DNA of 61,431 nucleotides from a virus. Every line of letters begins with the position of its first letter. The first letter of the stretch is position 1. Position numbers and translations under genes: made by a program. Positions 955-55,635 of this stretch are shown here, piece by piece. Under the pieces are notes generated by a model. The model saw only the letters and a program-made list of their open reading frames with translations, did no database searches and was not told the origin of the DNA. Where the stretch lies: IMG/VR virus record IMGVR_UViG_3300045988_127488; one strand, written 5' to 3'.

Positions 955-955
955 A

Positions 956-1657: not shown

Positions 1658-1673
1658 TATTATATTATAAATG

Positions 1674-3722: not shown

Positions 3723-3775
3723 AATCTGCTAATTTTTAAACTATTAATTATTAATTTTAAATTCTTAATTGAAGT

Positions 3776-17300: not shown

Positions 17301-20300
17301 CCATTACCCTTGTTGAGGGTAAACATACCCTTATCATCAGCAAGCTCTGGTCGCTCGTCTGCCTGTTCCCACTTACCGAGTTCGATAGGTTGCACAAACT
17401 TGCCCTTCACCTTTGCAGCCATCGGTGGATAGAGTTTTCCATCCTCGCCTACCTGCATGGCACGATAAACCTTCACCGTGTCTTCCTTATCCAGCTTCTT
17501 GATGGTCTCAGGGTCTTTCACAATGCTATAGCTAGCATCATTCCCATTCATCACGATCTGCTCGTCTCGGTTCACGTCCTCAGTCTCCTCAGCCAATGAG
17601 TTTCTGCGCTCCTCATCAGTCATACCCAAACGCTTCTCCACATTTCTCGATTCTACCTCACCTGCCAACTTTAGGTATTCTTTGTAAGAATCAAAGTCAG
17701 AGCGTGTACTTTCATTCAGGCGAAAACGTTTGATGGCATCATCCATACTTCTATCAGCATAGCCACGTGCAAAGTAATTGAACCCCTTGATACGTGTTTC
17801 TTTATCAGGAAGTTCATCAGACATATCCAAATCCTTATATTCCTCAACAAGGGCTTTTTCTACCTCCGATTGATTATACTCACCTCCCAATTCCTTGGCC
17901 TTTTCTTCCAATTCATGAGCATAAGCACGTGCCTTCCACTCGTCTTGCGCTTCCTTAAATTCTTTTTCCATTTGTTCAGGTGATCCACCTTTTCCAAAGC
18001 CCTCTATATACTGGATAGCATGCTGAATCTCGTGATTCAAAATACTATTCATATATTTCAGCTCATCAGCATGAATGGTAATGGTGTTGGTCTTGGCATT
18101 ATAATTACCATTTGAAGGCATATCGTTCATAATGGCATCCGTATCAATACGCACATCCTTCAACTGAGGATAAGCCTCAAAGAGTCCAGGCGCATCAATG
18201 ACATTAGTAAGTTTACCATCATTCCAAAGCATATCGTCATCAAAACGCTTAACAATATTACCACCGCCAATATCCTTCATATCCTTAATCTTAGCATCCG
18301 GCATTTCATATCTCCACTTGCCATCTACACCTTTCTCCCAACCTGTAGCCATCTTGATAATCTTGGCATTCTTTTTTGACACTTCCATTTGCTTAGCCAC
18401 ATCCAGGTTATCCATGCGGATAGTTTGCTCCTCAGCCTTATCAGCCTCAGCAGCTCCCTTCTCTCCAGCAAACATGAATCTCACATCGCTCTTGCGAGAA
18501 TTGAAACGCTTAGAAGGAGGAATAACGTCACCCTTATCATCATAGGTAACAAGGTCGTTCAACTTTCTGTTGTTCTTGGCATTCTTATATTTATATGCCT
18601 TGCCATCATCAAAGCCAAACTCGTTTGCGTCATTACCGTCCCACCACAGTTGAGTAGCCGGAACTTCATCTTCAATGATACGATATTTGCCTTCCAGACG
18701 GTTTGTTCCGTGCATTTCGGCATATTTCTTTGAAGGAGTAACCCAGTCACCATTACGCAACTTGCCTTCCTTCACAGAAGTAGGAACAGCACGATAAACC
18801 TTTACCTTAACATCCTTCTCGCCATTCTTAATAGCATCAATAGCTGCATTGATGGCTTTCACAGATTCCAATCCATGAGGAGTGTTCTGAGAATAACGCT
18901 CAGGATGGGAGAAGTAATCATCCGGCTGAGGAGCATAGCCCAAGGCAATATCCTCCAGGTTCACATCCGAGCCACTGGATTCCCAATCGTCACGTCTCGC
19001 CTTGTCGCTTTCATACCCAGGGTTTCCCGGTGCAGCCCATGCACCTACACCTTGGTATGCGCTTTCGGTATCATCATAGCCCTTGCGTCTGGCAGCCTCA
19101 TCAAGCATTTCCCTGGCTGTAGCATCATCACCTTTGGCAAGAGCATCCATATACTGCTTGTCAAGTTGATCATCAGGAATCACAGAAAGTTCCTCCAGGT
19201 GCTTTTGGCGCTTGGCTTCCTCTTCCTCTGCTCTCTTTCTAGCGGCTTCCATGGCGTTACGCTGCGCCTCCACCTGCTTCACGCGCTCCTCGATCATAGC
19301 ATCAAGGTCGCCAAAGTTCTCCTTCAAGGCATTATTTACAGGCACGGTGTACTTAAGAAGTTCCTTTAAAGAGGAAATCTTATCTTCATTTGCCTGCAAC
19401 AAATGGCGTTTGATATTGGCTCTGGCACGTGCAGCCTCAGCTGTAGAACCCTTCTTAATAGCATTGGCATACATCGCCACATCTGCCTCATCTACACCAA
19501 ATTGCTGAGATACAGCCATTATTTTATCCTCCACAGATAAATTTCCACCATTTCCCTTGGCGGTTTCGATATTATTTCTTATCTTTGCATCGCTATGAGG
19601 ATTCAGGACGCTATCCTTTCCGCTTGGGTTATTTGCGGATGGAGTTAATGCCGAACCTTGATTCTCGCCCAAGGAATTAGAATCGCCTCTGAAACGATTC
19701 CATAGCACTTTTGATTCCGTCAATTCTTTCAAAACTTTCGAAGGATCTATTTGATGTGCGCTAATCGCCACTTCCTCTTCACCCTGCTTTACTGTTATGG
19801 ATTCATAGTTCAGAATCTTGTTTCCATCAGCCTTTTTAAAGGATTTGATGAACAGATATTTAGTCTGTCGTTCCGCACCCTCTTTTGGTGCAGACTTCTC
19901 CAGGATAACATCAGGACGCTCCAGGGTAGGCTTCAACAAACCAAATCTTTTGATTCGGTCGTTTCTTCCAGCCTTCTTATATTGGTTTTCACCAAGTTTG
20001 ATACTTCCAATAGGAGTAGTAACACGGCTATCCTTGCCAAATTCTTTCAGCCAGTTTTCTTCCGTATGCTCTAGAATCCGTTCTTGCTCAGCATTATCTG
20101 CCATCTGTTTACGAAGAGAAACTGCATCTTCCTTAGTCATACGAGACTTCACGTTGCGTGGGTCCACCCCATTCGCCAAGTCTCTCAACACAAGATTACG
20201 AATATCCTCCAAGGTCATTTTCTTAATGTCCTCAGGCTTCCACTTCGTAAATGTATCAAGAGTCCAATACCAGAATTTCTTCAGCCACTCCTTCAACTTA

Positions 20301-23300
20301 TTGATAACGCTAAGTTCCTTGGCTGTATCAAGCGGATTCTCCTTGATAGCATCCTTAGCCATCTGTTCCAGGATGGCAGCTCCGTCCTCACCTGTCAAAC
20401 GAGCAAAAGCCTCATCGCAAATCTGCTCATCTGTCAGATGATTATAGTTAGGATCCTTCTTCAAATCGGCAAATAGCTGGGTCTGCATGATGAGTTTATC
20501 ACCATACTCTATAAGTTCCGGATTCATGTTCTTGGCAGCAGTACGCCAAAGATGCTGGTACTCATGAATAGGAGTATTAGGATTCAGATGCTCCTGGTTC
20601 AGCACAATCTCCTTGCCATCAGTGTAGCCATAAACTACACCCTTACCCTGCGCAAACTTGGTATGATCAACTATTTTCATATCCTCAGGCTTGAAGATAA
20701 CATAGTTGGTATCACCTTCCTCTGCACCACCAAAGTTACGACCAGCTTTATACTTGATGCCAGTGTAGCCAATAGAAGACAGGAACTTACTAACTGCACG
20801 ACTAGCATCTACATCTTTCCACTTTTTTGTTCTTCTTAAAGCATACATTAGAAAATCATAGGCATTACCGCCAAATGAACCATCAAAAGAAAAACCACGC
20901 TTTTTAAAGTCGTCAAAATCTATTTTTAATCGCCTTAATTCTTTAATGATTGTATTCTTCTGTTTATCTGTCAAAGGAGCATCCCAATCCAGATAGTTGC
21001 TGCCATTATCATCAGGTATATCCACCTCATAGAGATTATGATATGGCTCAGCCAACTTCTTCATTTCATTGTAGAAGTCAATCTTTTCCTGCTCTGTAAA
21101 CTTGTCATTCATGGCTATTTGCTTATCACCATGCAGGAATGATTCTAGAGTAGGATATTTCTTGGCGAACCTTGTACCATTGGAATGCTGAATGCGATAA
21201 TATGCCCTAGAAGGGTCATTGTCCATCAGAGTAGCATAATTCTTTCCAATCTTCTTAGATGATGTAACATAGCCACCCCAACCAAATGCTTGTGAACCTT
21301 CACCCTCGACCATGTGGTCGAAGTCAAACTCAGAAAAGCTAGCACCAGTACCATGATAAGTGCGTAAGAATCTCACTCCCGGCTCAGCAATAGCCTTCAA
21401 CTGTCTATCCAAATCCTTATATTTCGCAAACAAGGAATCAAGCTTATCTTGATATTTTTCAAAGGATTTATTCCTGCAATCATTCCAAACATCATCAGGA
21501 ATATCGTTTTCAGAATCCAGTCCATGCTCATCCATGTACTCCTTCATCAACTGATTTTGATACTCCTTACGTTCCTGCCCGGTTGACTTATAAGCCTCCT
21601 CAGTCTCCTTAATCTGCTTCTTCAATTCATCCTTCTTACTAGTCTGAGCAGCTATCTTATATGGGTCAAACTCCGAAGGGAAAGAGCCAGTAAGCCCAGC
21701 CACATTGTCCTCAAAGCTCTTGTCGAGATTGAAAACCTTGTAGTTTCCCCACATCAGCCTATTCAGGTAGGTACGTTCCTTTCTTGCCAGTTCCTGCTTC
21801 TGATAGTACTCCGGCATCTTATTCGGATTGCTCATATCCACCACGGCATACTGCGCCCATTTGTTTGGTCGCAAATCCTTGGCAAAGTTATAAGCATTCT
21901 CGGCAGCCTGCTTCTCCTCAGGAGTCTTAATCTTAAATCTCATTTCAGGCTGATTCAGCAGCATGGCAAGATTCAGATTATCCTGCGCATCAGCCACCTT
22001 CTCCATATCCTCGTTGCTAACCACCTTCACCGGAATACCAGCCTTCTTAAGCATAGTAGAAACAGCATCGTAAGCCACCTTCTGCGCCTCCGTCATATCA
22101 GATGGCTTCACCTCCTTCACATCGCGATCAAATTTTGCCTGTTCCTTCTGCACCATAGCATAGTCTGCAAAAGGTTTAGTCTTGCGGTCAGAAGACTCCA
22201 GCCACTTGTCAAAGGTAGCCTTAGGCACAGAAGTAACCTTACCAAGTCCCTTCCAGCCCTTGGAGTAGTTGGCAAGATAAGCCTCTGTAGCAGCCTCCTC
22301 AGAAGGATAGCCATACATCACCTTATGCTCGTCAAACTCACCAGTCTCTGGGTTCACCTGGTCAACAACATAAACGTTACCATCAAAAGAATCAAGGTCA
22401 GCAGCATCATTGATGAACATATCAATATGGTCACCATCCACACCAATCTTGCCCAAGATATAGCCATAAGTATCGTGCATGGTCACGCTCCAAGGCTTGC
22501 CCTGCTCGTCATTACCGCTACGTGTAGTTCCCTTCGGTGTCTCTACAGTAAAGTCATAGCCACCAAATGACAAATGTCCCTTCTTATAGTTACCTGCCTT
22601 CTTCTGAGCCTCAGAAGGGTTAGGCTCAGTCTCGGCAATGGCACTCTTTAAACGTTCTCCGAAGGATGCTTCTTGCGGTAGATGTGAGCCTCGAACAGCT
22701 GAGCCTTCGCCAGGTTCCATGCTGCCAGTCTCTTGTCGCCCTTTGCGTCCGCTATCAGAGCCTTCTCCAATCTCGGACTCAGAAGATGCTTCTCCGTTAC
22801 CAACTTCTTCGCCTTGGCTATTTCCTTCATCAACTCCTCTCCGTGAAGAGTCGCTACCCAGGCTACTGCCTCCTCCATATCCTTCTTCATTGCTTCTGTC
22901 ATCATAATCAGCTAATTCTGGTAAAATTGATTTGACATATTGTTTGTACTCTCGTTCACGATCCTCAATCTCCATCATACGGTCAAATTCAAGTCCATTG
23001 ATGTGATCAAGTTCGCTTTCAGACGGCAAAGATAACTCTTTTTCGTGAATATACGATTTATATTTCTCAATTTCTGCCTGTCTTTCGATAATTTCACGCT
23101 CTTTCTGTGCCTCATAATACTCTTCCTCGCTTGCAAGTTCATCTTCTGCAGCTGCTATGCGGTTCATGAAAGCCACATTTTTCATTTCCTTCACGCTGTC
23201 ATAAGACTTGAACATATCAAGAAGGGTATTACGAACATCCTGGTCGGTATATCCCATATCCAGCAAGTTTACAGGAAGGTCATTATATACCTTCACGGCA

Positions 23301-26300
23301 AATTCGTTAACCGACATACCGGTTCCTTTCTTGGCAATAAGATAATTGAACTTATTAGAATCATACCCCTTGCCAATACCAAACTTAAAATTACTCTTGC
23401 CCAACTCATATTGAAGAGATTCCGGATTCAAGCTATGAGGACTCAAATATTCTGATACTGCCTCTTCAAGAGTCTGAGGAGTCAAGTCCGTAATATCAAC
23501 AGAGGCATCCTTGTATATCTTTATTATTGCTCCAAGGTCATTCTTCTTGATGGCATCAGACACAAGAACCTTACGATGCTCAGAAGGGGTCATCATACCC
23601 TGTTCCTCCATTTCCTGCTGGCTAATTTCTGTTTTATAAAGTTTGCTGAGTTTATTAGCTTGTGCCTTCAAACCCTTTGCTGCAACCGACAAATTAGTCT
23701 GCAGAGCCTCCAGTTGAGCCTTTGTAGTATTCAATTCCATAAGTTGGGTAGGGTCCAGCTCTGTTTCGCCATTGATATACTGATCCAGCATATCATTCAC
23801 ACCATTTATCTTGCGTTCCACATCCTCCTGGGTATGATAAATGTCCTTGCGCTGAGAGGTAATATAGTCGGTAGCCTCATCCATAGTTGGATATTGCTTC
23901 TTCAATTCTTTATCATCAAGTACGAGCACATGGAAATCATCAGATGGCACGATGGCAGTTTCATCAACACCAGCCTTCTCCACCTCAGCCTTGCGCTCCT
24001 CCGTCATTGCTTTCACCTCATCAGGAGTCATCACGCTGTTGCGGATAGTATTCCAGTTCTTGAAACGAGCATCAAGATCAGCAATCTGCTCATTAACCAG
24101 ACTCAACTCATCTTCCACCTTCTTAGCCTTTTCCGGGTCAAGATCGGCATTTGTATCAAGCCAGTTCTGATATTCAGCAGCAGCCTTCCTCTTGTTGGCA
24201 AGTTGAGTCTTGATGTCATCACGGCTGCCATTAACCAGATTCAAAAGTTTGCCATGGTCTTCACCATACTGCTCCTGCAAATAATCAGCAGCCACCTTTG
24301 TATCTGTATCTTTTGAAGAATAATCAGGATGTCCCTCGCTCAATCCCACGATACCATCATTATATCGTTGCTTCTTTTCAGCCTCAGCCTGAGAAACTGC
24401 TTTCTGTTCACGTTCATCGTCCTCGCGATCCAAATGTTCATTGATTGTGTTGTCGAGCGCATTCTTGCGCCATGCTGCAAACTCCTCTTTAGATAGGGGA
24501 AGATAATCTTTGCCATCAGTAAGTACAATCTTTCCGTCCTCGCTATATCCGGCAAAGGTCATGTTGATATTAGCATCACCCTCCTCCATGGCAACTGTAA
24601 CCTGGTCATTCGGTTTCAAACCGCTGCCATCAAACTGGCTGATAAACTGCTTATTTCTTGCATCTTTCTGCTGAGCCACAGCTTTCTCGATGTATTGATC
24701 AAGAGGAACAGGAGTGCCCTTCTCTATAATACTTGCTTTAGATACCTGCTTAATCATAGGCTGTCCCTGCTCATCAGGAACAACAACAAAGGCTCCACCA
24801 TATTCGTTGTCTTTTTTCAGGAACACCTGTTTTCCGCTATCCAGAGTAGCTGGCACGATGTTTCCGTCTTCCGTCTGGTATGGCCAGAGCTGTTCCTTCA
24901 AAGCCTCACCATAGCCATCATCGGCATGCTGCAGAGCATCAATAGCGCCCTTCTTGGCATCCATTGCCTCTACATACTTACTGATAGCCTCTTTTTGTGC
25001 TGGAGTCAAACTACTTGCACGCTGAGCCACAAACTGATCCATATCTCTACCTTCATTATAGGCATTGGCTACAATATCAGGCATCTTCTCGTTATCAGCA
25101 AACGCTCGCTTCAAACGTCCTGTAGCTAAATCACTATTATAATCGATAGCCTGCAAAGCCTCAGAATCCCCATTCTTATAGGCATTCTGTCCCATAACAA
25201 AAGCATCAGAGCCTGCAACCTTTGTCTCAGGACTTGCACCCTCAGCAGAAGAGTTTGAAACGTTTGCAGGGTTTGCAGCAACTTCTGCATCACTCGGAGT
25301 TGGTACGGATTTGGTACGGTCTTGGTACGAAGCAGGTCCCTCTGAAACTGGAGGCTCCTGACCACCAGCAGAACCCTCAACAGGAGATACCGGGTTTTCG
25401 CCTTCAATCCTCTTCTGCTCATTACCATGTGAAGTATTATAGAGATCATCCATCGTCTGCTTCATTTCACGTTTCAGTTCGATGGAGTTGTAAAGCTCCT
25501 TAAGATAAGATTCCACCAAAGGTGCATATTTCTTATCTTTCGACTCCAAAGCCTTACGAAGTGTACCGCGCGCCACGCCATGGGAATCCTCAAACGTGTT
25601 GACAAACTCCCTCATCACAGAACTGTTCTCCAAAGCACTGTCATAATAATGACGATAGGCATTAATCTGCTTCTGCTCCTCATCAGTAAGGATAATACCC
25701 TTCTGCTGCTTATCCATGATTTCCTTGATGGCACCAGCATTCTGATGAAGATAAACCGCTGCCTTATCCTCATCTGTCAATTTCTCACCCATATTATATT
25801 TCTGGGCAGCCTTGTTGTATAAGCCTTCAAGATGCTCCTGCGTAAACTCATTGTGGAACTCACCTTCCAGCACAGAAGCCAAACCAAGAGTCTTCTCATA
25901 CTCCAGTTTCTTCTCATCATTACGTGCAGCATCATGAGAAGAATACTCCTTGCGGTCGATTACGCCTCCATCCTTATTATAGGTTTCCAAATAGTACTTA
26001 CCATCGTCACCTCTATATACCTCGCTATCAATAACAGGCGAGAAAGAAGAAGGTCGCTTGCCTTCCACCACAGCCATCATCTTAGCCTTCAACACCTCCG
26101 GAACACTCTTGTCGTTCATCAGGTTCATATATTTCTGGGTAAGCTGTCCATCAAGTCGCTGGGCATTTTCGCCAACCACGGCATACTCCCCGATACCTAC
26201 CTTCTCAAAAGCATCACGAAGACCATCATAGCCGAATCTCTTCAACTCGGCAATATCCTGATCTGTGAAGTCAAACTTCTTATTAAACTCCCTCGCATCC

Positions 26301-28471
26301 TTGAATCGGGCATACTTGCCCACAAAACCAGGGAAACCAATAGACAAAAGATTAGCACCACTCTCCAAGAAAGTTTCAGCCGCATCCTTGCCTGTAGGCT
26401 TAAAGTTAGGGTCATGCGCCATGCGCTCCAGTATCTGCTGCCCGGTCATGATACCGGAATCCGCAACCTTACCACCAACATCAGCCAGAATATTGGTAGC
26501 CAAACCTCTGCCCTTGCCTACCATGTTGGCAATAGTACCACCTTGCATAATGGCACCTACGGCACTCTGCTTAACCACATCGCCCAAAGTATTGGCAAGA
26601 ATCTTGCCCACTGAAGGATTGTAAACCTTGCCATTCTCATCAAACTGGCCAGTACGATAAATCTCATCAATAGGCTTCGAGATTGCAGACTGACCACCAA
26701 AGGTAACAGCACCATGCACGGCTCCGCTCTTCAAAGCCGCAGCCTTACTCTTGCCGATAAGCACCTTGGCAGCTCGCTCTGCCATCTTGCGCTCCATACC
26801 TTTAGCCATCAAGTCACCAGCCAGTTTGCCCTCAGCCTTAGCCACCATGCTCTTGGTCAACTTGCCACCTGCGGCTCCCGGTAGCCAATAACTCCAGGCA
26901 TCACCTGCAAAGGTCAACGCACCACTAGCCACGTTCTCCCAGAAGCCCGGCTGATACTGCTGATTGGCAATATCCTCCAGCCAGTTCTGATAGTCCGTCT
27001 GCATAGCCTTGCGAGTAATCTTGCCCACAATAGTGTTACCCAAACCAGTCTTCATGATGTACTCAGCACTACCCTTAGGCATCATACCCTTAATTTCCAG
27101 CTGGTCGAGTTCATTCTTAAGAACAGAATTGATCATCGGCTTGAACTGCTTAGGATCACCAGTCATACCGCCATTCAAGCCATATCGCTGCATCACCCTG
27201 AATGCAGCATTGCTCATATCGTTCAGGAACTCCGGATTCCGGTAGAGATTGCCAAACTTCTTCTGCAAACCAGAAAGCACCTTTGCTGGATCCTTAGCCT
27301 CGTTTGCCTCATACTGAGCACCAAGTGCTGTACCCAGACGAAGATTAGCTGGAATATACTGACTTCCTTCCATTCCCTCTGTAAATGCCTTGCTACCTGC
27401 CTCCTGAGCCTTGTTGTACTCATCCACTACAGATGGATTCACATATTTATTAATAACGCTAGAAAGAGCCTCATTGATGTCCTGGTTCATCAGTCTGTCC
27501 TGCACATGCTCATCGTGAGCATAGAGACGAGTGGCGATACCCTCAGCGATGTCACGATAGTTCTGACCATACTTCTGCACAAGGCTCTGCACCATAGCTG
27601 GCTTCAAGAATTGAGCCACATAGTCATCATAGCTGATACCCATGCTGTCAGCCTCCTGCTTCAACTTATCCTGCACGCCATGGCTATACCATTGCGCCCC
27701 GATACTCTGCTCAGCATCCTGCACCGTATCATCAGGCAAAGAAGATACTACCTGGTTAGTTACGTCCATAGCCGAACGGTAGGCATATCTGTGCAAAGCA
27801 GGCATCACCATATTCACTGCCTCCTCATTGCTATTGGCAGTACCATCAGCCAACAAGTCGGCAACCATATTCTCAAAGTACGAACTCTGCTTATCCGGTC
27901 TCTGCTTCCAGTCCTCAATATAGTTGGCAAGTTTGGCATCCATCAACCCCTCATTATTCACCACACCAGTTGGTGTTGTAACAGGAGCCGCATTAGCAGA
28001 TGAAGAAGGAGAAGTTTCTTCCTTCACAGGCTTTTCCTCACCTTTTACAACAGGCTGAGAAATCGCTGGCGATGGCTGATATGTTCCGTTGCTCGTCTGA
28101 ACACCAGTAGGAATCATATCCAAAACTTTTGCTATAAGCCCAGGCTCTTTGTCTATTGTTTCCTGCTTCTTTGCTGGTTGAGCCACCTGCGGCTTAGTCT
28201 CAGTAGAAGCCTTCTGCTCTACACTCTGAGTCGTAGCAGAAGCATCTACCTGCTTACCACCACCAGAAGTAGATGGAGCTGGCTCCAGCACCATCTTGTC
28301 AAAGTCTGCCTGTGTTCCCACATCATAGCCCATGTTCTTTGCCTCATTGTAGTACCAGTCACGATCTTCCTTGTTGTTCAAGTCCTTTTTAAAGTCATCA
28401 TAGCTACCTACCTCATAGCCATTGTTCTTGAACTCATCATAGAAATACTTTCTGTCTCGTTCGTCAAACAT
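11339..28471 (-). CDS. Giant multidomain polyvalent-type protein (5,710 aa), probably virion-delivered
   Basis: A single ATG-initiated ORF of 17,133 nt with no stop. Several enzymatic motifs are embedded in it (sub-features below), separated by charged or coiled-coil linkers. It is the last gene of a late-promoter operon. Confidence 0.9.
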   Translation of the reverse strand: MFDERDRKYFYDEFKNNGYEVGSYDDFKKDLNNKEDRDWYYNEAKNMGYDVGTQADFDKMVLEPAPSTSGGGKQVDASATTQSVEQKASTETKPQVAQPAKKQETIDKEPGLIAKVLDMIPTGVQTSNGTYQPSPAISQPVVKGEEKPVKEETSPSSSANAAPVTTPTGVVNNEGLMDAKLANYIEDWKQRPDKQSSYFENMVADLLADGTANSNEEAVNMVMPALHRYAYRSAMDVTNQVVSSLPDDTVQDAEQSIGAQWYSHGVQDKLKQEADSMGISYDDYVAQFLKPAMVQSLVQKYGQNYRDIAEGIATRLYAHDEHVQDRLMNQDINEALSSVINKYVNPSVVDEYNKAQEAGSKAFTEGMEGSQYIPANLRLGTALGAQYEANEAKDPAKVLSGLQKKFGNLYRNPEFLNDMSNAAFRVMQRYGLNGGMTGDPKQFKPMINSVLKNELDQLEIKGMMPKGSAEYIMKTGLGNTIVGKITRKAMQTDYQNWLEDIANQQYQPGFWENVASGALTFAGDAWSYWLPGAAGGKLTKSMVAKAEGKLAGDLMAKGMERKMAERAAKVLIGKSKAAALKSGAVHGAVTFGGQSAISKPIDEIYRTGQFDENGKVYNPSVGKILANTLGDVVKQSAVGAIMQGGTIANMVGKGRGLATNILADVGGKVADSGIMTGQQILERMAHDPNFKPTGKDAAETFLESGANLLSIGFPGFVGKYARFKDAREFNKKFDFTDQDIAELKRFGYDGLRDAFEKVGIGEYAVVGENAQRLDGQLTQKYMNLMNDKSVPEVLKAKMMAVVEGKRPSSFSPVIDSEVYRGDDGKYYLETYNKDGGVIDRKEYSSHDAARNDEKKLEYEKTLGLASVLEGEFHNEFTQEHLEGLYNKAAQKYNMGEKLTDEDKAAVYLHQNAGAIKEIMDKQQKGIILTDEEQKQINAYRHYYDSALENSSVMREFVNTFEDSHGVARGTLRKALESKDKKYAPLVESYLKELYNSIELKREMKQTMDDLYNTSHGNEQKRIEGENPVSPVEGSAGGQEPPVSEGPASYQDRTKSVPTPSDAEVAANPANVSNSSAEGASPETKVAGSDAFVMGQNAYKNGDSEALQAIDYNSDLATGRLKRAFADNEKMPDIVANAYNEGRDMDQFVAQRASSLTPAQKEAISKYVEAMDAKKGAIDALQHADDGYGEALKEQLWPYQTEDGNIVPATLDSGKQVFLKKDNEYGGAFVVVPDEQGQPMIKQVSKASIIEKGTPVPLDQYIEKAVAQQKDARNKQFISQFDGSGLKPNDQVTVAMEEGDANINMTFAGYSEDGKIVLTDGKDYLPLSKEEFAAWRKNALDNTINEHLDREDDEREQKAVSQAEAEKKQRYNDGIVGLSEGHPDYSSKDTDTKVAADYLQEQYGEDHGKLLNLVNGSRDDIKTQLANKRKAAAEYQNWLDTNADLDPEKAKKVEDELSLVNEQIADLDARFKNWNTIRNSVMTPDEVKAMTEERKAEVEKAGVDETAIVPSDDFHVLVLDDKELKKQYPTMDEATDYITSQRKDIYHTQEDVERKINGVNDMLDQYINGETELDPTQLMELNTTKAQLEALQTNLSVAAKGLKAQANKLSKLYKTEISQQEMEEQGMMTPSEHRKVLVSDAIKKNDLGAIIKIYKDASVDITDLTPQTLEEAVSEYLSPHSLNPESLQYELGKSNFKFGIGKGYDSNKFNYLIAKKGTGMSVNEFAVKVYNDLPVNLLDMGYTDQDVRNTLLDMFKSYDSVKEMKNVAFMNRIAAAEDELASEEEYYEAQKEREIIERQAEIEKYKSYIHEKELSLPSESELDHINGLEFDRMMEIEDREREYKQYVKSILPELADYDDRSNEEGYGGGSSLGSDSSRRGVDEGNSQGEEVGNGEASSESEIGEGSDSGRKGRQETGSMEPGEGSAVRGSHLPQEASFGERLKSAIAETEPNPSEAQKKAGNYKKGHLSFGGYDFTVETPKGTTRSGNDEQGKPWSVTMHDTYGYILGKIGVDGDHIDMFINDAADLDSFDGNVYVVDQVNPETGEFDEHKVMYGYPSEEAATEAYLANYSKGWKGLGKVTSVPKATFDKWLESSDRKTKPFADYAMVQKEQAKFDRDVKEVKPSDMTEAQKVAYDAVSTMLKKAGIPVKVVSNEDMEKVADAQDNLNLAMLLNQPEMRFKIKTPEEKQAAENAYNFAKDLRPNKWAQYAVVDMSNPNKMPEYYQKQELARKERTYLNRLMWGNYKVFNLDKSFEDNVAGLTGSFPSEFDPYKIAAQTSKKDELKKQIKETEEAYKSTGQERKEYQNQLMKEYMDEHGLDSENDIPDDVWNDCRNKSFEKYQDKLDSLFAKYKDLDRQLKAIAEPGVRFLRTYHGTGASFSEFDFDHMVEGEGSQAFGWGGYVTSSKKIGKNYATLMDNDPSRAYYRIQHSNGTRFAKKYPTLESFLHGDKQIAMNDKFTEQEKIDFYNEMKKLAEPYHNLYEVDIPDDNGSNYLDWDAPLTDKQKNTIIKELRRLKIDFDDFKKRGFSFDGSFGGNAYDFLMYALRRTKKWKDVDASRAVSKFLSSIGYTGIKYKAGRNFGGAEEGDTNYVIFKPEDMKIVDHTKFAQGKGVVYGYTDGKEIVLNQEHLNPNTPIHEYQHLWRTAAKNMNPELIEYGDKLIMQTQLFADLKKDPNYNHLTDEQICDEAFARLTGEDGAAILEQMAKDAIKENPLDTAKELSVINKLKEWLKKFWYWTLDTFTKWKPEDIKKMTLEDIRNLVLRDLANGVDPRNVKSRMTKEDAVSLRKQMADNAEQERILEHTEENWLKEFGKDSRVTTPIGSIKLGENQYKKAGRNDRIKRFGLLKPTLERPDVILEKSAPKEGAERQTKYLFIKSFKKADGNKILNYESITVKQGEEEVAISAHQIDPSKVLKELTESKVLWNRFRGDSNSLGENQGSALTPSANNPSGKDSVLNPHSDAKIRNNIETAKGNGGNLSVEDKIMAVSQQFGVDEADVAMYANAIKKGSTAEAARARANIKRHLLQANEDKISSLKELLKYTVPVNNALKENFGDLDAMIEERVKQVEAQRNAMEAARKRAEEEEAKRQKHLEELSVIPDDQLDKQYMDALAKGDDATAREMLDEAARRKGYDDTESAYQGVGAWAAPGNPGYESDKARRDDWESSGSDVNLEDIALGYAPQPDDYFSHPERYSQNTPHGLESVKAINAAIDAIKNGEKDVKVKVYRAVPTSVKEGKLRNGDWVTPSKKYAEMHGTNRLEGKYRIIEDEVPATQLWWDGNDANEFGFDDGKAYKYKNAKNNRKLNDLVTYDDKGDVIPPSKRFNSRKSDVRFMFAGEKGAAEADKAEEQTIRMDNLDVAKQMEVSKKNAKIIKMATGWEKGVDGKWRYEMPDAKIKDMKDIGGGNIVKRFDDDMLWNDGKLTNVIDAPGLFEAYPQLKDVRIDTDAIMNDMPSNGNYNAKTNTITIHADELKYMNSILNHEIQHAIQYIEGFGKGGSPEQMEKEFKEAQDEWKARAYAHELEEKAKELGGEYNQSEVEKALVEEYKDLDMSDELPDKETRIKGFNYFARGYADRSMDDAIKRFRLNESTRSDFDSYKEYLKLAGEVESRNVEKRLGMTDEERRNSLAEETEDVNRDEQIVMNGNDASYSIVKDPETIKKLDKEDTVKVYRAMQVGEDGKLYPPMAAKVKGKFVQPIELGKWEQADERPELADDKGMFTLNKGNGKSLKAAYNPYLHTSRTPLNDQFSEAQNRPNIVTVEVEVPKSELTSGYKADKAKDAVGEVEWKAGIIQGQLTGKRKVVLSRWDKPVRIVPDSEVADVIVNDMFKGKNITMPSNVVTPSLRKELEKRGVPFVETDNRGRIVGGENDGVHYSKVYGKNAQSPIVEQKLKKHPDSLMKAGTYFSGGGLVEEGLKGIIDPVVAVEYDRKISGVYRNNFGQHIVTADVRDVDPKELVKHIDGEVEYFHASPVCKNYSQAKSNSGEVELDKETAKSTADFIDAVKPRVVTIENVKGYKDSEAMKIITQALDKNGYTWDADVYNAADYGGYTSRERLIVRAVKDGELPEKPKKQPRKGGWLEAVEDILPTLTVKESGVAPWMDARLKADGIDWQKVEKPLYVMGSAYADGKIPHAYGDEILPTLRTKSGDVIIMPGGKVLRADGRVLARITGLGDDYLLPKTESLAHTIIGNGIPVQLTQGVIAPLLNKDDLSGRNVLARLGKSIFKNDWDADKQKKVSDQVVNTANKLGGAEATVYTSVDEVPDAYLSEVKNGATGWYDPETHTVHVYLPNCADASEAERTVLHEKIGHEGMEVLLGGEDEVRKFANFVYNSVAASTRGKILEIANEYDPDWKNPDRMNVGTQEYIAHLAEEGPKTAEDFTLWTKIKHYLIRFLKKLGIRVPGLLNDKDLRYYLMKAGKALHVWDNMPKEKQEAMMKQASNAEIKDSLGEGAKNGKPRQKKGESTIQYMKRVQEWRKWKNAREDKEDPEPPMFYDIDKDEAGKKEWAQLNKDWRERHHLAGEEPMGMPIRMEGEEDGAYMTRIHEYEKWKEAMKDQEDPMPDMFAYEKKKQEEVKRKYEDWLSRHELLEQQQADLDLYEGKIYPAETNPKADDLEQQVMQDLAEVTSTDVSKEGAAKTVKHAVIHRRKNMEEASADDAIYINDVKNRIEKMADSGAFDKLLSDYKGKPNRAEKLAEAIPYIIEAPRRLRDLAHDLNATGAFDKGHIHIQPADVEAIQPYVADLIAETGKKHTELKDGKEVEVYDDPQAVSEVASKMAQVINANHQGEEGFVPIDGTDILSEHVLPLVKQQIVPVGIDYKNLSPEMKAAIDSIRDWYNYTYDWLKDNHTLREDTGYNADYVNHIWDKEKSDPEAYATFVENRQRTKSPNEKPRTISTLMEGISVGLVPKTTDITKMMAYYSRSNIEAWVNKTMLQELSGLNVIERNEDGEIVSSDALLSSTPPFNLEQYKYFEIPGVGPVWVYNVSPRQMKVKNPITGKERVLYSEASAGDRFGVVFESYQSSPFWKAFDTLASSAKKLELGFSGFHAGALTEVYMVQNMVEFGPKKAMANFMKYIFVDTMKNHELPCFANPEDFQEAATHLVKFGATNDYAAADVQNMFDNMRDAMIKVQEKLKDGNKISGTVALATMPLKVATQMLSLINKGMDRALWDFLHDGLKLATYRMRADKTKERAKKKGWTEEELSRALDEDGQFVNDMFGGQHWDILGASHRTLRYAGRVLLSPDWNASTTRHFLALTGYGSIWNEATFENFKHYYKRLGHGILTPEDEGRRSRQISALLCYGIGFMVFYEGIANGINAAFRALDEEKERKKAEEIRKTNPSYKSMYELAYPDGMNWYDYLMRGNSLGQQSKIFLGRYEDGTEMYVRHGKQFREVPEYLFNHKGELEFPGPMVQRMIGKANPMVRMTLDDINYLSDFQASHADQEIQRKYGKTIGLLYKDALYWAPFLIPSQENKEFKAVDFFFPSSKGFSPWKAQSYFKDFILSGDMEGIAMTYQSCQRNGIDAEAQIKAAIGSVKALESAEMSDGVTSLQEAIKRFDAAKSITEKKKMRQKMKKFLSQSDYKAFTQKEALDMVQGYLNGDEDLKEMEKAESKYLMAAKAEDVTEDWRIQNAWNGTMEAYQEYQRLKDIDKAKANAFKNSKTNKRLFAARKAISAAKKKMNKAKKQMDGTNGAAKMVEIRKTRKELLKTLNGME
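15200..15760 (-). other. Zincin-like metallopeptidase module 3 within the giant ORF
   Basis: TVLHEKIGHEGMEVLLGG (nt about 15550-15578) contains the HExxxH / HExxGHxG signature. Confidence 0.45.
15880..16790 (-). other. C5-cytosine DNA methyltransferase domain within the giant ORF
   Basis: Motif I YFSGGGL (about 16751-16770). Motif IV-like ASPVCKNYS (about 16558-16570). Motif VI TIENV (about 16439-16450). Motif VIII YTSRERLIV. Motif X IGNGIPVQL (about 15899-15915). Confidence 0.75.
17000..17485 (-). other. Conserved module beginning DTVKVYRAMQ...LYPPM (function unknown)
   Basis: Shares the VKVYRA start signature with the module at 18560..18810. No catalytic assignment is possible from sequence alone. 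Confidence 0.3.
17960..18345 (-). other. Zincin-like metallopeptidase module 2 within the giant ORF
   Basis: GWEKGVDGKWRYEMPD...NSILNHEIQHAIQYIEGFGKGG, with the HExxH at nt about 18020-18034. Confidence 0.5.
18560..18810 (-). other. Module KVKVYRAVPTSV...GDWVTPSKKYAEMHG...ANEFGFD (possible R-S-E type ADP-ribosyltransferase-like)
   Basis: The spacing of an Arg (YRAV), a Ser/Thr-x-Ser (TPS) and a Glu (NEF) is reminiscent of R-S-E ARTs. This is a weak motif-level call. Confidence 0.3.
20250..20650 (-). other. Zincin-like metallopeptidase module 1 within the giant ORF
   Basis: NTPIHEYQHLWRTAAKN has its HExxH at nt about 20552-20566. It directly follows the ART-like module. Confidence 0.5.
20660..21370 (-). 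other. ADP-ribosyltransferase-like module (H-Y-E style signature) within the giant ORF
   Basis: RTYHGTGASFSEFDFDHM, GWGGYVTSS and DTNYVIFKPEDMKIV appear in the order expected for H-Y-E ARTs. Confidence 0.4.
22155..22625 (-). other. Family-I inorganic pyrophosphatase-like domain within the giant ORF
   Basis: FTVETPKGTTRSG...TYGYILGKIGVDGDHIDMFI closely parallels my recollection of the E. coli PPase core, [20 protein letters not shown]. Confidence 0.65.
26440..26950 (-). other. Gly/Ala-rich hydrophobic segment within the giant ORF
   Basis: GFWENVASGALTFAGDAWSYWLPGAAGG...GAVHGAVTFGG...AVGAIMQGGTIANMVGKGRGLATNILADVGG has small-residue helix-packing character. Confidence 0.4.
28292..28456 (-). 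repeat. Two tandem copies of an approx. 25-aa motif at the N-terminus of the giant protein
   Basis: RKYFYDEFKNNGYEVGSYDDFKKDL is followed by RDWYYNEAKNMGYDVGTQADFDKMV. Confidence 0.6.
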
Positions 28472-36761: not shown

Positions 36762-37196
36762 ATGCAATCAGAAGAAGCAAAGTCAAAACAAAAAGAAAGG
36801 CAGCGAGAATACTATCTTAAGCATCGTGATAAAATGCTCGCCTATTCTCGCAAATACATCAAGGATCATCCCGAAAAGCAGAAGCTATATCGGGAAAATG
36901 CAGCCAAGAAACGAGCCAACGGCACTGGATATTATCAGAGATACTATCAGCGCAACAAAGAAAAATTGCTGGAAAAGTCTAAAAGCTGGAGACAGAATCA
37001 CCCCGAAAAGGTGAAGGAGTACCAGCGCAGATACTATCAGAAGAAAAGAGCAGCAGCAAAGAAAGAAAAGAAGATAATGCTGAATCCAGATATAGATAAG
37101 GCAAAATCCCTCTTCCGTGATCCTTCTAAGACAGTTCACCTACAGTGGCTCCTGGAACACAACAGAAACAAAAGTAAGCAATATGAATCACGCTAG
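36762..37196 (+). CDS. Highly basic repeat protein (YY-x-K/R ... HPEK repeats)
   Basis: Three units of the type REYYLKHRDKMLAYSRKYIKDHPEKQKLY / QRYYQRNKEKLLEKSKSWRQNHPEKVKEY / QRRYYQKK. Confidence 0.5.
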   Translation: MQSEEAKSKQKERQREYYLKHRDKMLAYSRKYIKDHPEKQKLYRENAAKKRANGTGYYQRYYQRNKEKLLEKSKSWRQNHPEKVKEYQRRYYQKKRAAAKKEKKIMLNPDIDKAKSLFRDPSKTVHLQWLLEHNRNKSKQYESR

Positions 37197-38475
37197 TTTA
37201 TTCAGCGGAATCGGTGGTGCTGAGGTCGCGGCATCCATGATGGGATGGCAGAACCTCTTCCATTGCGAGATACAAGAGTTCCCTCGCAAGGTACTCCAAT
37301 ACTGGTTCCCAAATTCAGAAAGTTATGAAGACATTACCAAAACAGACTTCACAAAGTGGCACGGCAAAGTCGATGTTCTCACAGGAGGATTCCCCTGCCA
37401 ACCTTTCTCCCTTGCTGGCAGAAGAAAGGGAGCGGACGATAACCGCTACCTCTGGCCACAGATGCTTCGAGCGATACGGCAGATACACCCCACTTGGGTC
37501 GTTGGTGAAAACGTTAATGGAATCAAAACGATGGTGGAGTCCTGCCAAGTCACTCATATGGGACGCACAGACTATCTTTTCGAAGAGAATCACCTATACC
37601 GAGAGGAAAGCCGATTCACCCTCGACAAAATCTGTGCAGACGTCGAAGCCGAAGGATATTCCGTCCAACCGATTGTTATTCCAGCTTGTGCCATCGGAGC
37701 ACCACACAGAAGAGACCGAGTTTGGATTGTTGCCCACCGTTCAGACCCAAGGGCTGAAACAGTGCAACAAGAAGGGCAAGACAGACCACAGCCTAGGTCT
37801 AGAAGACATGGCAGTGGCACAACTCCTTCCTACGCCCACGGCACTCGACAAAGGAGGAGGAAGAATAAACAAGAGCCTTTCACCGAATGCAGCAGAACGC
37901 CCAACCTTGGCACTCGCCGCTCGAAAAGGCTTGCTTCCCACTCCTTGCAGCATAGAAGCCACGAAGTTCACCAAGACCATCAATCCCAATTCCCAGATGG
38001 GGCAAGGACTAACAGCCTTGGCAGTCAATGGTCTTCTTCCCACTCCTACCGCAATGGAGGTAAAGCACTCCAAGCGAGTAAAGGGCTTGAAAGAACAGGG
38101 CGCAAAAGGGATGTACAGCCGAAAGAACGGAGCACTTCGCCCGAATGGACTGACCGACTTTCTCGACTTCAACGGCATGATGCCCACGCCATCAGCGAGA
38201 GACTGGAAGGGATGTACCAATCCTGGGGTGAAGAAAGTGAACGGAAATGTGTATGGCGAGACTTTGCCCGACACTGTGAAGAAGGTCACTGGAAGCACTT
38301 CCCAACTCAATCCCCTGTTTGTAGAGGAAATGATGGGATTCCCTTTGATGTGGACAGCCTTACCATTTCTTTCCCAAAGTGGCGACAAGAATCCATAAAG
38401 GCTTACGGCAATGCCTGGGTGCCACAAGTGGCTTACGAGATATTCCGTGCCATCGAGGCAGAAGAAAACAAATAA
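37183..38475 (+). CDS. C5-cytosine DNA methyltransferase (frame-1 ORF; the middle 200 aa look out of frame)
   Basis: Motif I LFSGIGG, IV GGFPCQPFS, VI VGENV and VIII GAPHRRDRVWIVA lie in the N-terminal part. Motif X YGNAWVPQV lies at the C-terminus. The region between is R/S/Q/H-rich low-complexity sequence. Confidence 0.7.
   Translation: MNHASLFSGIGGAEVAASMMGWQNLFHCEIQEFPRKVLQYWFPNSESYEDITKTDFTKWHGKVDVLTGGFPCQPFSLAGRRKGADDNRYLWPQMLRAIRQIHPTWVVGENVNGIKTMVESCQVTHMGRTDYLFEENHLYREESRFTLDKICADVEAEGYSVQPIVIPACAIGAPHRRDRVWIVAHRSDPRAETVQQEGQDRPQPRSRRHGSGTTPSYAHGTRQRRRKNKQEPFTECSRTPNLGTRRSKRLASHSLQHRSHEVHQDHQSQFPDGARTNSLGSQWSSSHSYRNGGKALQASKGLERTGRKRDVQPKERSTSPEWTDRLSRLQRHDAHAISERLEGMYQSWGEESERKCVWRDFARHCEEGHWKHFPTQSPVCRGNDGIPFDVDSLTISFPKWRQESIKAYGNAWVPQVAYEIFRAIEAEENK
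37325..38398 (+). other. Overlapping +1-frame ORF (357 aa) carrying the methyltransferase target-recognition-like repeats
   Basis: Five LLPTPxAxD-type repeats start at 37727, 37823, 37931, 38033 and 38177. A motif IX-like LNPLFVEEMMGFPLMWT lies at 38306..38356. All are in the frame shifted +1 relative to 37183..38475. Confidence 0.6.
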
Positions 38476-38519: not shown

Positions 38520-39905
38520 ATGAAAACAGATGGCTACATATTTACTCCAGAGCTGTTGCAGTGGCGTTACTTCCATCGTCCTGTGGTCGTTCAGGTGCTC
38601 ATCCATGTGCTCCTCTCCTCCGCTCACAACGAGGCTTCCGCTGCCACCCTCTCCTATCGTGATTTGGCTCTACAGCTCCATACCACGGTCAAGACCATCC
38701 GTGTCGCCATCGATGTGCTCATAGCCGAGAAAATCATCACCAAGTGCTCTGCTCCAAGAGCCTCAACTAAACTCTACGTTAACAGTTCTCACCCCCTATC
38801 CCACTGCATCATACCGTGGCAAAGAGACCAAGGGGCACAGGTTACGGCACACTTCGGGGCACAGATTGGGGCACAATATAGGGCACAGATTCAATCTTCC
38901 GAAGTTCCTTTAAATAAAGGCGATTCCGAAGATTCAGAAACTATCAAGGGCACAGTTAAGGGCACGATTAAGGGCAAAGATGGGGCACGCTCCAGGGCAC
39001 ACCCTAAACAAGGGACACACCAAAAGGCACATTATAGGGCACAGATTAACAATCCCGAAACCCCTTTAAATAAAGGTTATTCCGAAGATTCTGCCGAAGT
39101 TGAGGGCACAGCCAAGGGCAATGGTAAGGGCACAGAAGTAAGAGGAAAGAAACAAATAAAAGAAAACATTTCCCCCGAACCCCCTATAAAAGAAAACAAA
39201 CAAAGAAAGGAGAAAGCCCACACCCACACACAAAAAAAAGAAAAAGAAAAAAAGTCGTTGGATCCGGAAGTTCAGTTCTCGGAAGTGCTAAGACTCTTCA
39301 ATCGCCTCTTTCTGGGCACGCAGGTCAAGCCAATCTCAAAGATGACTCCAGACCGAAAGAAGATGGTGGCAAAGTTTATCTCAGACTATTCCTTCGAGGA
39401 TATAGAACCGATGCTTCGCAAGGCTCTCAACTCCGATCTTCTCTCAGGGCGCAAGGATGGTGGATGCTATATCTCCTTCAACTGGCTCTTCAATCCGAAG
39501 AACTACGAGGCTCTGATGGAAGGAACCTTCGACAATCCTACAGTTGTAGCCTCAGCCGGGAAGAAGCCTCAGCATTCAAGTTCTCCACCACCTTCTCCTC
39601 CACAGCCTCAATGCGAGGAGACCAACGAGGAAATAGAAGCTCGCCTCAGAATGAAAGAAGATCGCAAGAAGGAATTAGAGAAAGAACAGACCGAAGCCCT
39701 ACGGCAGAAGTATCTAGGCTGGATAGAAGCCGCCAAGAAGAACCCGAATGGCTCGATGGCAAAGATGGTGATAGATGCCTACAAGAATGGCACTCTGGCT
39801 AAACTGGGCATCGTCTGGAATCCATCGGTGGCAGAAGAAGAACAGTCACTGGCCGACTTGGATGATCAGACTCAGAATTATCTCCAGTCTCTCCTCAGCG
39901 ACTAA
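38520..39905 (+). CDS. Replication initiation / DnaD-like protein with a phage conserved C-terminal domain
   Basis: An N-terminal wHTH-like segment (LSYRDLALQLHTTVKTIRVAIDVLIAEKII) is followed by an iteron-encoded low-complexity linker. The C-terminal FNRLFLGT...SGRKDGGCYISFNWLFNPKNYEALMEGTFDN resembles the Phg_2220_C type. Confidence 0.55.
   Translation: MKTDGYIFTPELLQWRYFHRPVVVQVLIHVLLSSAHNEASAATLSYRDLALQLHTTVKTIRVAIDVLIAEKIITKCSAPRASTKLYVNSSHPLSHCIIPWQRDQGAQVTAHFGAQIGAQYRAQIQSSEVPLNKGDSEDSETIKGTVKGTIKGKDGARSRAHPKQGTHQKAHYRAQINNPETPLNKGYSEDSAEVEGTAKGNGKGTEVRGKKQIKENISPEPPIKENKQRKEKAHTHTQKKEKEKKSLDPEVQFSEVLRLFNRLFLGTQVKPISKMTPDRKKMVAKFISDYSFEDIEPMLRKALNSDLLSGRKDGGCYISFNWLFNPKNYEALMEGTFDNPTVVASAGKKPQHSSSPPPSPPQPQCEETNEEIEARLRMKEDRKKELEKEQTEALRQKYLGWIEAAKKNPNGSMAKMVIDAYKNGTLAKLGIVWNPSVAEEEQSLADLDDQTQNYLQSLLSD
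38833..39133. repeat. Iteron array: at least 11 exact copies of GGGCAC plus degenerate copies in about 300 bp, including two approx. 78-bp direct repeats
   Basis: Exact GGGCAC hexamers start at about 38833, 38857, 38869, 38881, 38948, 38960, 38983, 38995, 39037, 39104 and 39128. Degenerate copies (cggcac, gggcaa, gggaca, aggcac) lie between them. Long repeats span 38877-38955 and 39033-39111. Confidence 0.8.
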
Positions 39906-54615: not shown

Positions 54616-55479
54616 TTACTGATAGCCACCTGCTACACCTGCGCCACATCCGCAACCGCCATTCATCAGATTGGCAAAGTAGATGTTCTGCTGCAACTGA
54701 GAGTTCTTAAACTTCAAGTCCTGAATCTCGTTAGCTTGCTCCTGGCTCCAATGCCCTGTCAAGGTGTCGATGATGCGCTGGGTGTTGTTCTCACCTGCAC
54801 GGATGACGTCACACTTGTCTTGCTGCATCTGGAAACCGAGATTCGAAGCTGCTCTTTCTATACCAGTGTTGGTATAGCTAAAGCCCTGCTGCATCTGGTT
54901 AACGATGTCCTTCTGACCAAGCTGGTTATCGTAACCCATCTTGATGATGTTCTGCTGAGTCTGGCAGCAGCAATCCTTCAACGCTATTGTCATCTGCAAG
55001 TTACCCTGCGAAATAGCGTTGATCACTCGCTCTGCCGAGAATCCTACCTGACCGCCAAGCTGCTGGATGCCTGCCTGGATGCCACAGATAGAGTTCTGCA
55101 AGGCGTTGAAGTCACAGTTCAGATTGCTTGCCAACATCTTAAGGTCGTTGCCGTTACCCTGGATGGCACCCATCAGCAAGTTGCTATTCTGGTTGTCTGC
55201 CATCTGGTTGCGCAAACTCTCGATTTGACTCTGAATCTCCGCACGCTGCACGTCTGCGCCATTGTCACGATTGTTCCAGTCTGCACCATACATATATCGC
55301 ATCATGCCCATCATCATCATGTAGGCAAACGGATTGTTCCACATATCATCATCGTCACGGTTACGCATCATAGCCGCCATTGCCAAAGGATTGCTGTCAC
55401 GATTTGCCATCGCTCCAAGCAAACCACCCATCATTGCATCGTTGCAACAAGAGGTAGTCTTAATTACTTCTTCTGCCAT
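54616..55479 (-). CDS. Met/Gln/Asn-rich protein with Cys clusters
   Basis: 287 aa containing TTSCCND, MMMMGMMRYMYG, KDCCCQTQQN and a C-terminal NGGCGCGAGVAGGYQ. Confidence 0.55.
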   Translation of the reverse strand: MAEEVIKTTSCCNDAMMGGLLGAMANRDSNPLAMAAMMRNRDDDDMWNNPFAYMMMMGMMRYMYGADWNNRDNGADVQRAEIQSQIESLRNQMADNQNSNLLMGAIQGNGNDLKMLASNLNCDFNALQNSICGIQAGIQQLGGQVGFSAERVINAISQGNLQMTIALKDCCCQTQQNIIKMGYDNQLGQKDIVNQMQQGFSYTNTGIERAASNLGFQMQQDKCDVIRAGENNTQRIIDTLTGHWSQEQANEIQDLKFKNSQLQQNIYFANLMNGGCGCGAGVAGGYQ

Positions 55480-55635
55480 AATTCCTAAAGAAATAAAAGT
55501 TGTACATTTTGTTTATTCACACATGTAATCGATTACGGCAGCAAAGTTATCCCAAAATATCTACATGTTTCATAACTCTGTCAAACATTCTTTTAGTGGC
55601 TGATTTCTAAAGATTTAAGGTGACATAGACCCATA

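Follow-up and report, generated by a model that had tools for sequence, protein, structure and literature searches.

We analysed a stretch of viral DNA of 61,431 nucleotides (nt) (IMG/VR virus record IMGVR_UViG_3300045988_127488), here called the window, in which the conserved motifs of a DNA cytosine-5 (C5) methyltransferase are divided between two overlapping open reading frames (ORFs) on the same strand. Both frames are real and maintained by selection, each having its own constrained segments. Our preferred interpretation, to which we assign a probability of about 70% based on sequence features and on analogy with a characterised enzyme, is that they encode two separately translated subunits of a heterodimeric C5-methyltransferase, the gene of the small subunit (beta) being nested in that of the large subunit (alpha). 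The apparent anomaly would thereby be resolved: the gene would be neither broken nor recoded, and both enzyme halves would be encoded in a compact form. The features of the locus are listed below (coordinates refer to the window; aa, amino acids).

37183..38475, + strand: alpha gene, 430 aa from ATG 37183 (alternative start GTG 37117), one frame throughout (frame 1); predicted large subunit of the C5-methyltransferase (PF00145, phrog_363)
37198..37734, + strand: alpha catalytic core with motifs I-VIII; purifying selection on the alpha frame
37198-37218, + strand: motif I, LFSGIGG, alpha frame
37384-37410, + strand: motif IV, GGFPCQPFS (PCQ), alpha frame
37498-37515, + strand: motif VI, VVGENV (ENV), alpha frame
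37654-37734, + strand: motifs VII-VIII, alpha frame; APHRRDRVWIVA ends at 37734
37736..38289, + strand: alpha linker of about 185 aa with a high content of R, S, Q, E, G and H; no constraint on the sequence, stop-free
38290..38430, + strand: alpha C-terminal segment WKHFPTQSPV...KWRQESIKAYGNAWVPQV, which includes motif X
38404-38430, + strand: motif X, YGNAWVPQV, alpha frame
37325..38398, + strand: beta gene, +1 frame (frame 2), 357 aa, nested wholly within alpha; predicted small subunit
37325..37327, + strand: beta start ATG, formed by the alpha codons TAT-GAA (Tyr-Glu)
37328..37726, + strand: beta N-terminal extension, overprinted on alpha motifs IV-VIII
37532-37561, + strand: WWSPAKSLIW, in the beta N-terminal extension
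37670 onward, + strand: RLLFQLVPS, in the beta N-terminal extension
37727..38302, + strand: beta module array, five LLPTPxAxD-type modules; beta codon position 3 most diverse
37727, 37823, 37931, 38033 and 38177, + strand: module cores, the first one degenerate (LLPTVQTQG)
38303..38356, + strand: QLNPLFVEEMMGFPLMWT, motif IX-like and the best-conserved part of beta
37741..38427, - strand: antisense ORF, 228 aa, which reads as a by-product outside the system

The ORF listing of the window contains these three ORFs (frame 1, the +1 frame and the antisense frame) at the given positions. It agrees with a previous description made from the letters alone (the sequence-only reading), according to which frame 1 is open from end to end with motifs I, IV, VI, VIII and X, the +1 frame is open with five LLPTP modules and a motif IX-like segment, and the antisense frame is open as well; all motifs and modules were found in the frames reported there. 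In a Pfam scan, alpha matched PF00145 with 142.2 bits (cut-off 22), and scores of 113 bits against TIGR00675 (cut-off 100.65) and 235 bits against phrog_363 were obtained. Motifs I (FxGxG), IV (PCQ), VI (ENV), VIII (RxR) and X (GNxxxP) are all located on the alpha chain. A conserved variable region and a motif IX between motifs VIII and X were not found on the alpha chain itself. Alpha residues 185-369 are unconstrained (0.62 identity, codon position 1 being the most variable), and the hydrophobic fraction is 0.19 in the linker compared to 0.39 in the rest of alpha. The central part of about 200 aa had been noticed before as looking like an out-of-frame translation. A protein identical to alpha (P0391, 430 aa) was called on an independent contig of 61,411 nt.

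To assign selection to the individual frames, 71 unique relatives were aligned at the nucleotide level and diversity was measured per codon position. The following segments were obtained.

37183-37482: alpha position 3 most variable, selection on alpha
37483-37602: beta position 3 most variable (0.225 vs 0.085 and 0.160), selection on beta
37603-37735: alpha position 3 most variable, selection on alpha
37736-38289: alpha position 1, which is beta position 3, most variable (0.377), selection on beta
38290-38398: low diversity at all positions, both frames constrained
38399-38472: alpha position 3 most variable, selection on alpha

In the regions R0, R1 and R3, diversity peaks at alpha codon position 3 (0.23-0.25), and alpha is therefore under purifying selection there. 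Between 37736 and 38289, amino-acid identity to the window was 0.78 in the beta frame versus 0.62 in the alpha frame, while upstream of motif VIII (37483-37602) conservation was 0.815 for beta versus 0.785 for alpha; between 38290 and 38398, both frames are conserved to about 0.9. The places where the selection signature changes frame agree with the switch points at about 37735-37760 and 38357-38398 that had been deduced from the distribution of the motifs. In the comparison of homologues frame by frame, which the sequence-only reading had proposed, both frames are open in most homologues, and the constrained frame alternates along the locus.

The openness of the two frames was tested by keeping the beta protein fixed and reshuffling synonymous codons over the central 194 codons (three shuffle tests, 20,000 shuffles). 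Across these codons, 16 stops in the alpha frame were expected with the codon usage of the genome and 8.7 with the gene's own codons, and none was observed. The probability of finding no stop was 5e-5 in one shuffle test, and no zero-stop shuffle occurred among 20,000 in the other two. The third sense frame contains 14 stops over the same stretch. For the beta frame upstream of motif VIII, 1.9-5 stops were expected and 0 observed (P 0.002-0.05). Stops in the alpha frame are also absent from 115 of 123 unique central regions of relatives, for which the median expectation is 6.7 stops each and the sum amounts to about 776 expected versus 7 observed stops. In 113 of 124 unique loci, no stop interrupts the beta frame from motif IV to motif VIII. 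The openness of the two same-strand frames exceeds chance; the antisense frame is not conserved among relatives. Since the antisense ORF is in register with the codons of frame 1, it reads as a by-product of a frame 1 that presumably lacks TTA, CTA and TCA codons here. It was considered as a third gene and rejected, its open run covering only 49-290 codons among relatives; no family match was found for it in Pfam or PHROG.

Both frames are open in about 140 of about 165 related loci from phages and prophages of Bacteroidota, Firmicutes and Proteobacteria. Eighty viral contigs with relatives were fetched, 78 of them with a parsable gene. In about 75 of these 78, motifs I, IV, VIII and X are located in one end-to-end open frame of 350-467 aa, and the LLPTP modules together with the MGFP motif are located in the +1 frame, which is open as well. 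The nested layout is intact in 65 of 84 further loci, mainly from Bacteroidota bacterial genome contigs, and in none of these 84 loci does motif IV share a frame with motif IX. It is also present in the isolated Bacteroides phages BKO1-TP3 and BS-TP4, the Paenibacillus larvae phages Leyra and HB10c2, the coliphages N15 (gp58) and K1ind2 (ORF29/ORF28), and a Porphyromonas phage whose beta, of 205 aa and with a single module, is minimal. In the latter (L087, Porphyromonas phage phage018a_AFR5B1), the frames extend over 937..1923 and 1148..1765; only beta is annotated (hypothetical protein, 1151..1765), and the 328-aa alpha methyltransferase ORF enclosing it carries no annotation.

Relatives with staggered instead of nested frames serve as a natural control. 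In L084, alpha ends 25 codons past motif VIII, and a single frame, that of the beta protein (P0150, 660 aa), encodes the modules together with motif IX, an 'FFPTQSPV' segment and motif X; over the length of the modules, the alpha frame has 29 stops in 440 codons versus 37.6 expected and is thus not maintained open. L168 (P0277) is staggered, too, with alpha stopping nine codons past motif VIII. Motif X follows motif IX in beta's frame also in P0216, P0233, P0275 and P0325, and a segment homologous to the alpha C-terminal segment is found after motif IX in beta's frame in P0150, P0216, P0233 and P0277. Among the relatives, motif X is located either on alpha or on beta, and the frame that is kept open appears to be the one with motif X, as would be seen if alpha is read straight through. 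Ribosomes that departed from frame 1 past motif VIII and came back ahead of motif X would not need an open frame 1 in between, so the openness of this frame speaks for straight translation. Because alpha of the staggered relatives has only motifs I-VIII, beta is probably part of the enzyme. For research on overlapping genes, the family would offer a clean natural experiment, in which the frame with motif X is open and the abandoned frame fills with stops in L084.

The putative start codon of beta is strongly conserved. ATG 37325-37327 is invariant in 71 of 71 unique relatives, including T37326, which is synonymous in the Tyr codon of alpha. In 99 of 124 unique loci, the first ATG of the beta frame is located 20-26 codons upstream of the PCQ proline, a few mis-parsed loci accounting for most of the apparent exceptions. 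Purine-rich, Shine-Dalgarno-like motifs were detected 9-13 nt upstream of the beta ATG, within alpha codons, in three Firmicutes-type lineages, whose hosts use Shine-Dalgarno sequences (GGGAGG at 13 nt in Leyra, AAAGGAG at 9 nt in L168, and AAGGGGGG at 9 nt in L169). For the Bacteroides-type phage of the window, we infer separate initiation of beta from these sequence features.

Beta matched phrog_1008 (labelled 'DNA methyltransferase') at 5e-23. In total, 4,318 database proteins match beta, this frame being often called by gene callers, and its central part alone matches 2,456 clusters at 50% identity. In the N-terminal extension, a W.S....L.W motif is common to beta and very distant relatives (Paenibacillus phage Leyra, L084 and P0170). 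In the window type this motif overlies a variable alpha insert and no alpha motif, and it therefore represents a genuine constraint on beta. An AlphaFold2 model of beta, calculated with a 121-sequence alignment, predicts at moderate confidence two helices and a hairpin in the extension, with a block-mean predicted local distance difference test (pLDDT) score of about 75-84 for residues ~30-80 and about 64-66 around residues 116-126. At the DNA level, the 21-nt GLLPTP core is the only repeated part of the modules, each of which has its own type of flanking sequence that is kept across relatives. The number of modules differs among relatives: in close ones beta has 322, 341, 357, 377, 393 or 419 aa, and the number of cores ranges from one in the Porphyromonas phage to about ten in P0150. 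The segment following the modules was recognised with the motif IX pattern L-[TN]-P-x-x-x-E-x-[LM]-[MQ]-G-F-P-x-x-[WF]. Within it, G323, L328, P330, M337, P340 and W343 are invariant in alignment A1, and AlphaFold2 predicts a helix at 330-337 (pLDDT ~83). Based on this short pattern and on precedent, we call the C-terminal segment of beta motif IX-like. An overprinted second protein starting at ATG 37325 had been one of three explanations offered for the locus, and it is the one that gained support, with the addition that this protein looks like the missing part (motif IX and variable region) of the same enzyme.

The precedent is M.EcoHK31I from E. coli HK31 (Lee, Kam and Shaw 1995), a two-polypeptide C5-methyltransferase whose beta gene is located entirely inside the alpha gene in another reading frame (PMC2836561, PMC3404938). 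Motifs I-VIII and X are assigned to its alpha chain and motif IX to its beta chain. Both chains are required for this enzyme, N-terminal deletions of its beta chain beyond about 41 residues weaken the association with alpha, and the predicted target-recognition domain was placed on alpha (PMC2836561, PMC3404938). Compared by published description, the locus studied here resembles M.EcoHK31I in the nesting, in the distribution of motifs if the IX-like segment of beta is taken as motif IX, and in the N-terminal extension of beta, whose conservation fits the role of the M.EcoHK31I beta N-terminus in association. It differs in that alpha shows no sequence constraint from motif VIII to motif X, and the variable region that is conserved, namely the LLPTP modules, belongs to beta. 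Furthermore, M.EcoHK31I is part of a type II restriction-modification system, whereas the pairs described here are carried by phages or by mobile elements that have integrated, without a restriction gene being noted next to them in the loci examined. A blastn search of the gene against complete E. coli genomes gave no match. The second precedent, M.AquI from Agmenellum quadruplicatum, is a heterodimer divided within the variable region, one chain carrying motifs I-VIII and the second one motifs IX-X (PMC3404938). This corresponds to the motif distribution of the relatives L084 and L168, but in the window motif X is on alpha and not on the second chain. In contrast to M.AquI, beta of the family starts about 20-26 codons upstream of PCQ, and even the staggered relatives have an overlap with alpha of about 105-145 codons.

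In the proposed mechanism, two same-strand genes, one inside the other, would each be translated from their own start codon. Alpha would be read through in frame 1 and provide the catalytic large domain with motifs I-VIII and X, the linker of about 185 residues joining VIII to X and being free in sequence provided that no stop codon arises. Beta would be translated from the internal ATG in the +1 frame and contribute the motif IX-like helix and the variable region with its five LLPTP modules, and its N-terminal extension would probably dock it onto alpha. Both chains would then assemble to one active DNA cytosine-5 methyltransferase, as demonstrated by experiment for M.EcoHK31I, and methylation would protect the phage DNA from host restriction. 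The architecture and the precedents suggest that alpha and beta physically assemble and act jointly, that the modules serve target recognition and that the pair counteracts restriction.

Multispecific C5-methyltransferases with tandem target-recognising modules between motifs VIII and IX are known from the Bacillus phages SPR, phi3T, rho11s and H2. The number of modules varies among these enzymes, which are single polypeptides encoded in one frame. The tandem arrangement and variable number of modules are shared with the present family, whose use of two frames is the difference. A tentative and rather doubtful extension of the two-subunit interpretation is that the LLPTP modules are interchangeable target-recognition cassettes acting in trans to a constant alpha, so that the locus would encode a split multispecific enzyme shaped by an arms race with host restriction. 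In this case, gain or loss of modules among relatives would change the DNA sequences methylated by the phage. It would likewise follow that nesting on one strand, with an overlap reaching 1,074 nt and about 400 nt overprinted on catalytic motifs, has been stable in at least three bacterial phyla.

Several observations weigh against the assignment of the two chains to one enzyme, or weaken the evidence for it. The relatives share ancestry, and the counts of open frames are therefore not independent. Sequence and profile searches with beta gave no match in Pfam, NCBIfam or PDB. The majority of the conserved motifs of the beta N-terminal extension are shadows of alpha motifs, and synonymous diversity of alpha falls only modestly in the overlap, which argues for a weak constraint on the extension outside W.S....L.W. 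Addition of the beta C-terminus (last module only) to alpha raised the PF00145 score by 7.7 bits in the window construct and gave no gain in the corresponding L168 construct; hand-made chimeras of frame 1, frame 2 and frame 1 did not score better than alpha alone with Pfam and PHROG. In the AlphaFold2 model of beta, the module array has a pLDDT below 45 (low confidence), and the natural alpha-beta fusion P0283 was predicted with a mean pLDDT of 54 and no convincing fold. Foldseek against PDB gave no usable match for the model of beta or that of the P0283 fusion. Finally, the alpha linker contains a stop in some chromosomal Bacteroides copies (L085, L115-L117, L122-L124).

These linker-stop copies are located on Bacteroides chromosomes and a B. 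finegoldii plasmid. They have one stop in the alpha linker, at the same place in several species, and a beta frame open over 335-353 codons. L085 adjoins a TraQ conjugal transfer gene, and the RefSeq annotation of this locus is limited to a 'DNA cytosine methyltransferase' of 93 aa and a hypothetical protein of 146 aa. The copies could be inactivated genes on one mobile element, or they could represent a third way to split the enzyme.

Among the alternatives to two subunits of one enzyme, the best surviving one is that beta is a real, separately translated protein unrelated to methylation, with a function for instance in anti-defence or regulation, and that alpha alone is the active methyltransferase. 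This would fit an alpha chain that by itself exceeds the PF00145 threshold and contains motifs I, IV, VI, VIII and X, a beta chain with no detectable domain, and modules whose low-confidence prediction resembles that of short linear motifs in a disordered array. However, with its unconstrained VIII-X region alpha would have to work without a conserved variable region and motif IX, whereas beta ends in a motif IX-like segment and, in L084 and L168 as well as in the proteins P0216, P0233, P0275 and P0277, also has motif X. Where alpha stops after motif VIII, as in L084 and L168, the enzyme cannot work without beta, and M.EcoHK31I requires both chains (PMC2836561). We therefore regard an independent function of beta as improbable.

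Recoding or transcriptional slippage, also considered in the sequence-only reading, is clearly less probable still. Here, a programmed +1 shift after motif VIII and a -1 shift after motif IX would yield one canonical polypeptide, and the overlaps would be incidental. The order of the constrained segments (frame 1, frame 2, frame 1) is indeed that of a canonical enzyme, single-chain fusions of both frames are present in databases (P0123, P0234, P0261 and P0283), and the staggered relatives would require one +1 shift only. Against this, both junctions (37690-37800 and 38290-38420) were read in three frames without finding a slippery X_XXY_YYZ heptamer in the right register, as had already been reported, or a homopolymer run; CCCAAAG at about 38373 is in the register of alpha and not of beta. 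Recoding also leaves unexplained the stop-free middle of frame 1, an openness that vanishes in L084 with motif X in beta's frame, as well as the openness of frame 2 over about 135 codons upstream, the invariant ATG, the Shine-Dalgarno-like motifs and the constraint on frame 2 upstream of motif VIII. The fusions in databases switch frame at varying points, past motif I, IV, VI or VIII or within the linker, as random indels would. In genes with programmed frameshifts (prfB, dnaX and the phage tail assembly genes G/GT), two frames likewise serve one locus, but these have a defined shift site and no need for an open zero frame downstream or an open alternative frame upstream, while here both frames are maintained open and no shift signal was found.

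A decaying methyltransferase gene or two compensating assembly errors can practically be dismissed: a few broken relatives do exist (a stop in the alpha linker in L022, an indel that puts motif X in a third frame in L023, an early stop in alpha in L038, and an interrupted beta with intact alpha in L070, L078 and L079), but the identical protein P0391 on an independent contig, the recurrence of the layout in about 140 loci as well as in phage isolates whose genomes came from different groups, and purifying selection in both frames speak against decay and also make random indel error unlikely, as had been concluded before from the intact state of every other long gene.

The database fusions of alpha and beta were also considered as evidence for a canonical ancestor or for a shift product and were rejected as weak evidence, since the frame switch site differs each time. 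P0283 is a prophage variant from Paenibacillus larvae genomes (10 member sequences) in which alpha is fused in frame to a part of beta; it contains motifs I-VIII with a partial linker, the last two modules of beta and motif IX, and is without motif X. This variant may represent either a single-chain form that arose naturally or an inactive copy. In the related metagenomic, Firmicutes-like proteins P0281 and P0329, the motif I region of alpha is joined to the beta frame upstream of the PCQ position, and the catalytic cysteine motif is out of frame. The junction is shared by both proteins, which argues against a random sequencing error. Two independent metagenome contigs (L169 and L170) have an alpha broken at motif IV by an identical break (…VCGGFP, then stop) and an intact beta of 322 aa that carries motif X.

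This kind of gene pair has been known from M.EcoHK31I since 1995, and it is the spread in phages, the interchange of nested and staggered forms and the lack of a curated beta model that appear to be under-appreciated. The M.EcoHK31I layout, one of two natural exceptions in the literature searched, seems to be the usual arrangement in a very large group of phage and prophage cytosine methyltransferases. Members of the family are found in the coliphages N15 and K1ind2 and in phages of Paenibacillus, Bacteroides, Porphyromonas, Burkholderia, Vibrio, Klebsiella and Pseudomonas. A literature search found no description of overlapping methyltransferase ORFs in phages, and a paper on Paenibacillus phage genomics lists the two methyltransferase genes without comment. 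For Leyra (gp61/gp62) and K1ind2 (ORF29/ORF28), both ORFs of the nested alpha/beta pair were deposited as 'DNA methyltransferase', phrog_363 corresponding to alpha and phrog_1008 to beta; no explanation of this double annotation was found in the literature searched. Compared to the window, the number of WPTP or LLPTP cores is lower in Leyra, K1ind2 and N15 (one to three), and their alpha linkers are shorter. For genome annotation, this means that gene callers give either alpha or beta, with beta mostly named "hypothetical protein" and without a Pfam or NCBIfam model.

The related viral contigs mostly have a size of about 56-64 kb, and the window may therefore represent a nearly complete phage genome. 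More than a quarter of it is occupied by one ORF of 5,710 aa (11339..28471, - strand; 17.1 kb). The alpha start is overlapped by 14 nt by an ORF encoding a very basic protein of 144 aa (36762..37196, + strand) with repeated Y-Q/R-R-Y-Y and K-rich motifs, for which no Pfam match was found. In an ORF of 461 aa directly downstream of alpha (38520..39905, + strand), the segment …YRAQI…E.PLNKG.SEDS… is duplicated, and there is a tract rich in proline; the sole Pfam match of this ORF, Stathmin, was below the threshold. In the relatives, a replication initiation gene is located directly upstream of the methyltransferase gene in BKO1-TP3 and further upstream in BS-TP4. The window also contains pairs of long ORFs on opposite strands, namely 2154..3722 (-) with 2877..3896 (+), 5638..7827 (+) with 6367..7281 (-), and 54616..55479 (-) with 54736..55488 (+), which probably represent shadow ORFs.

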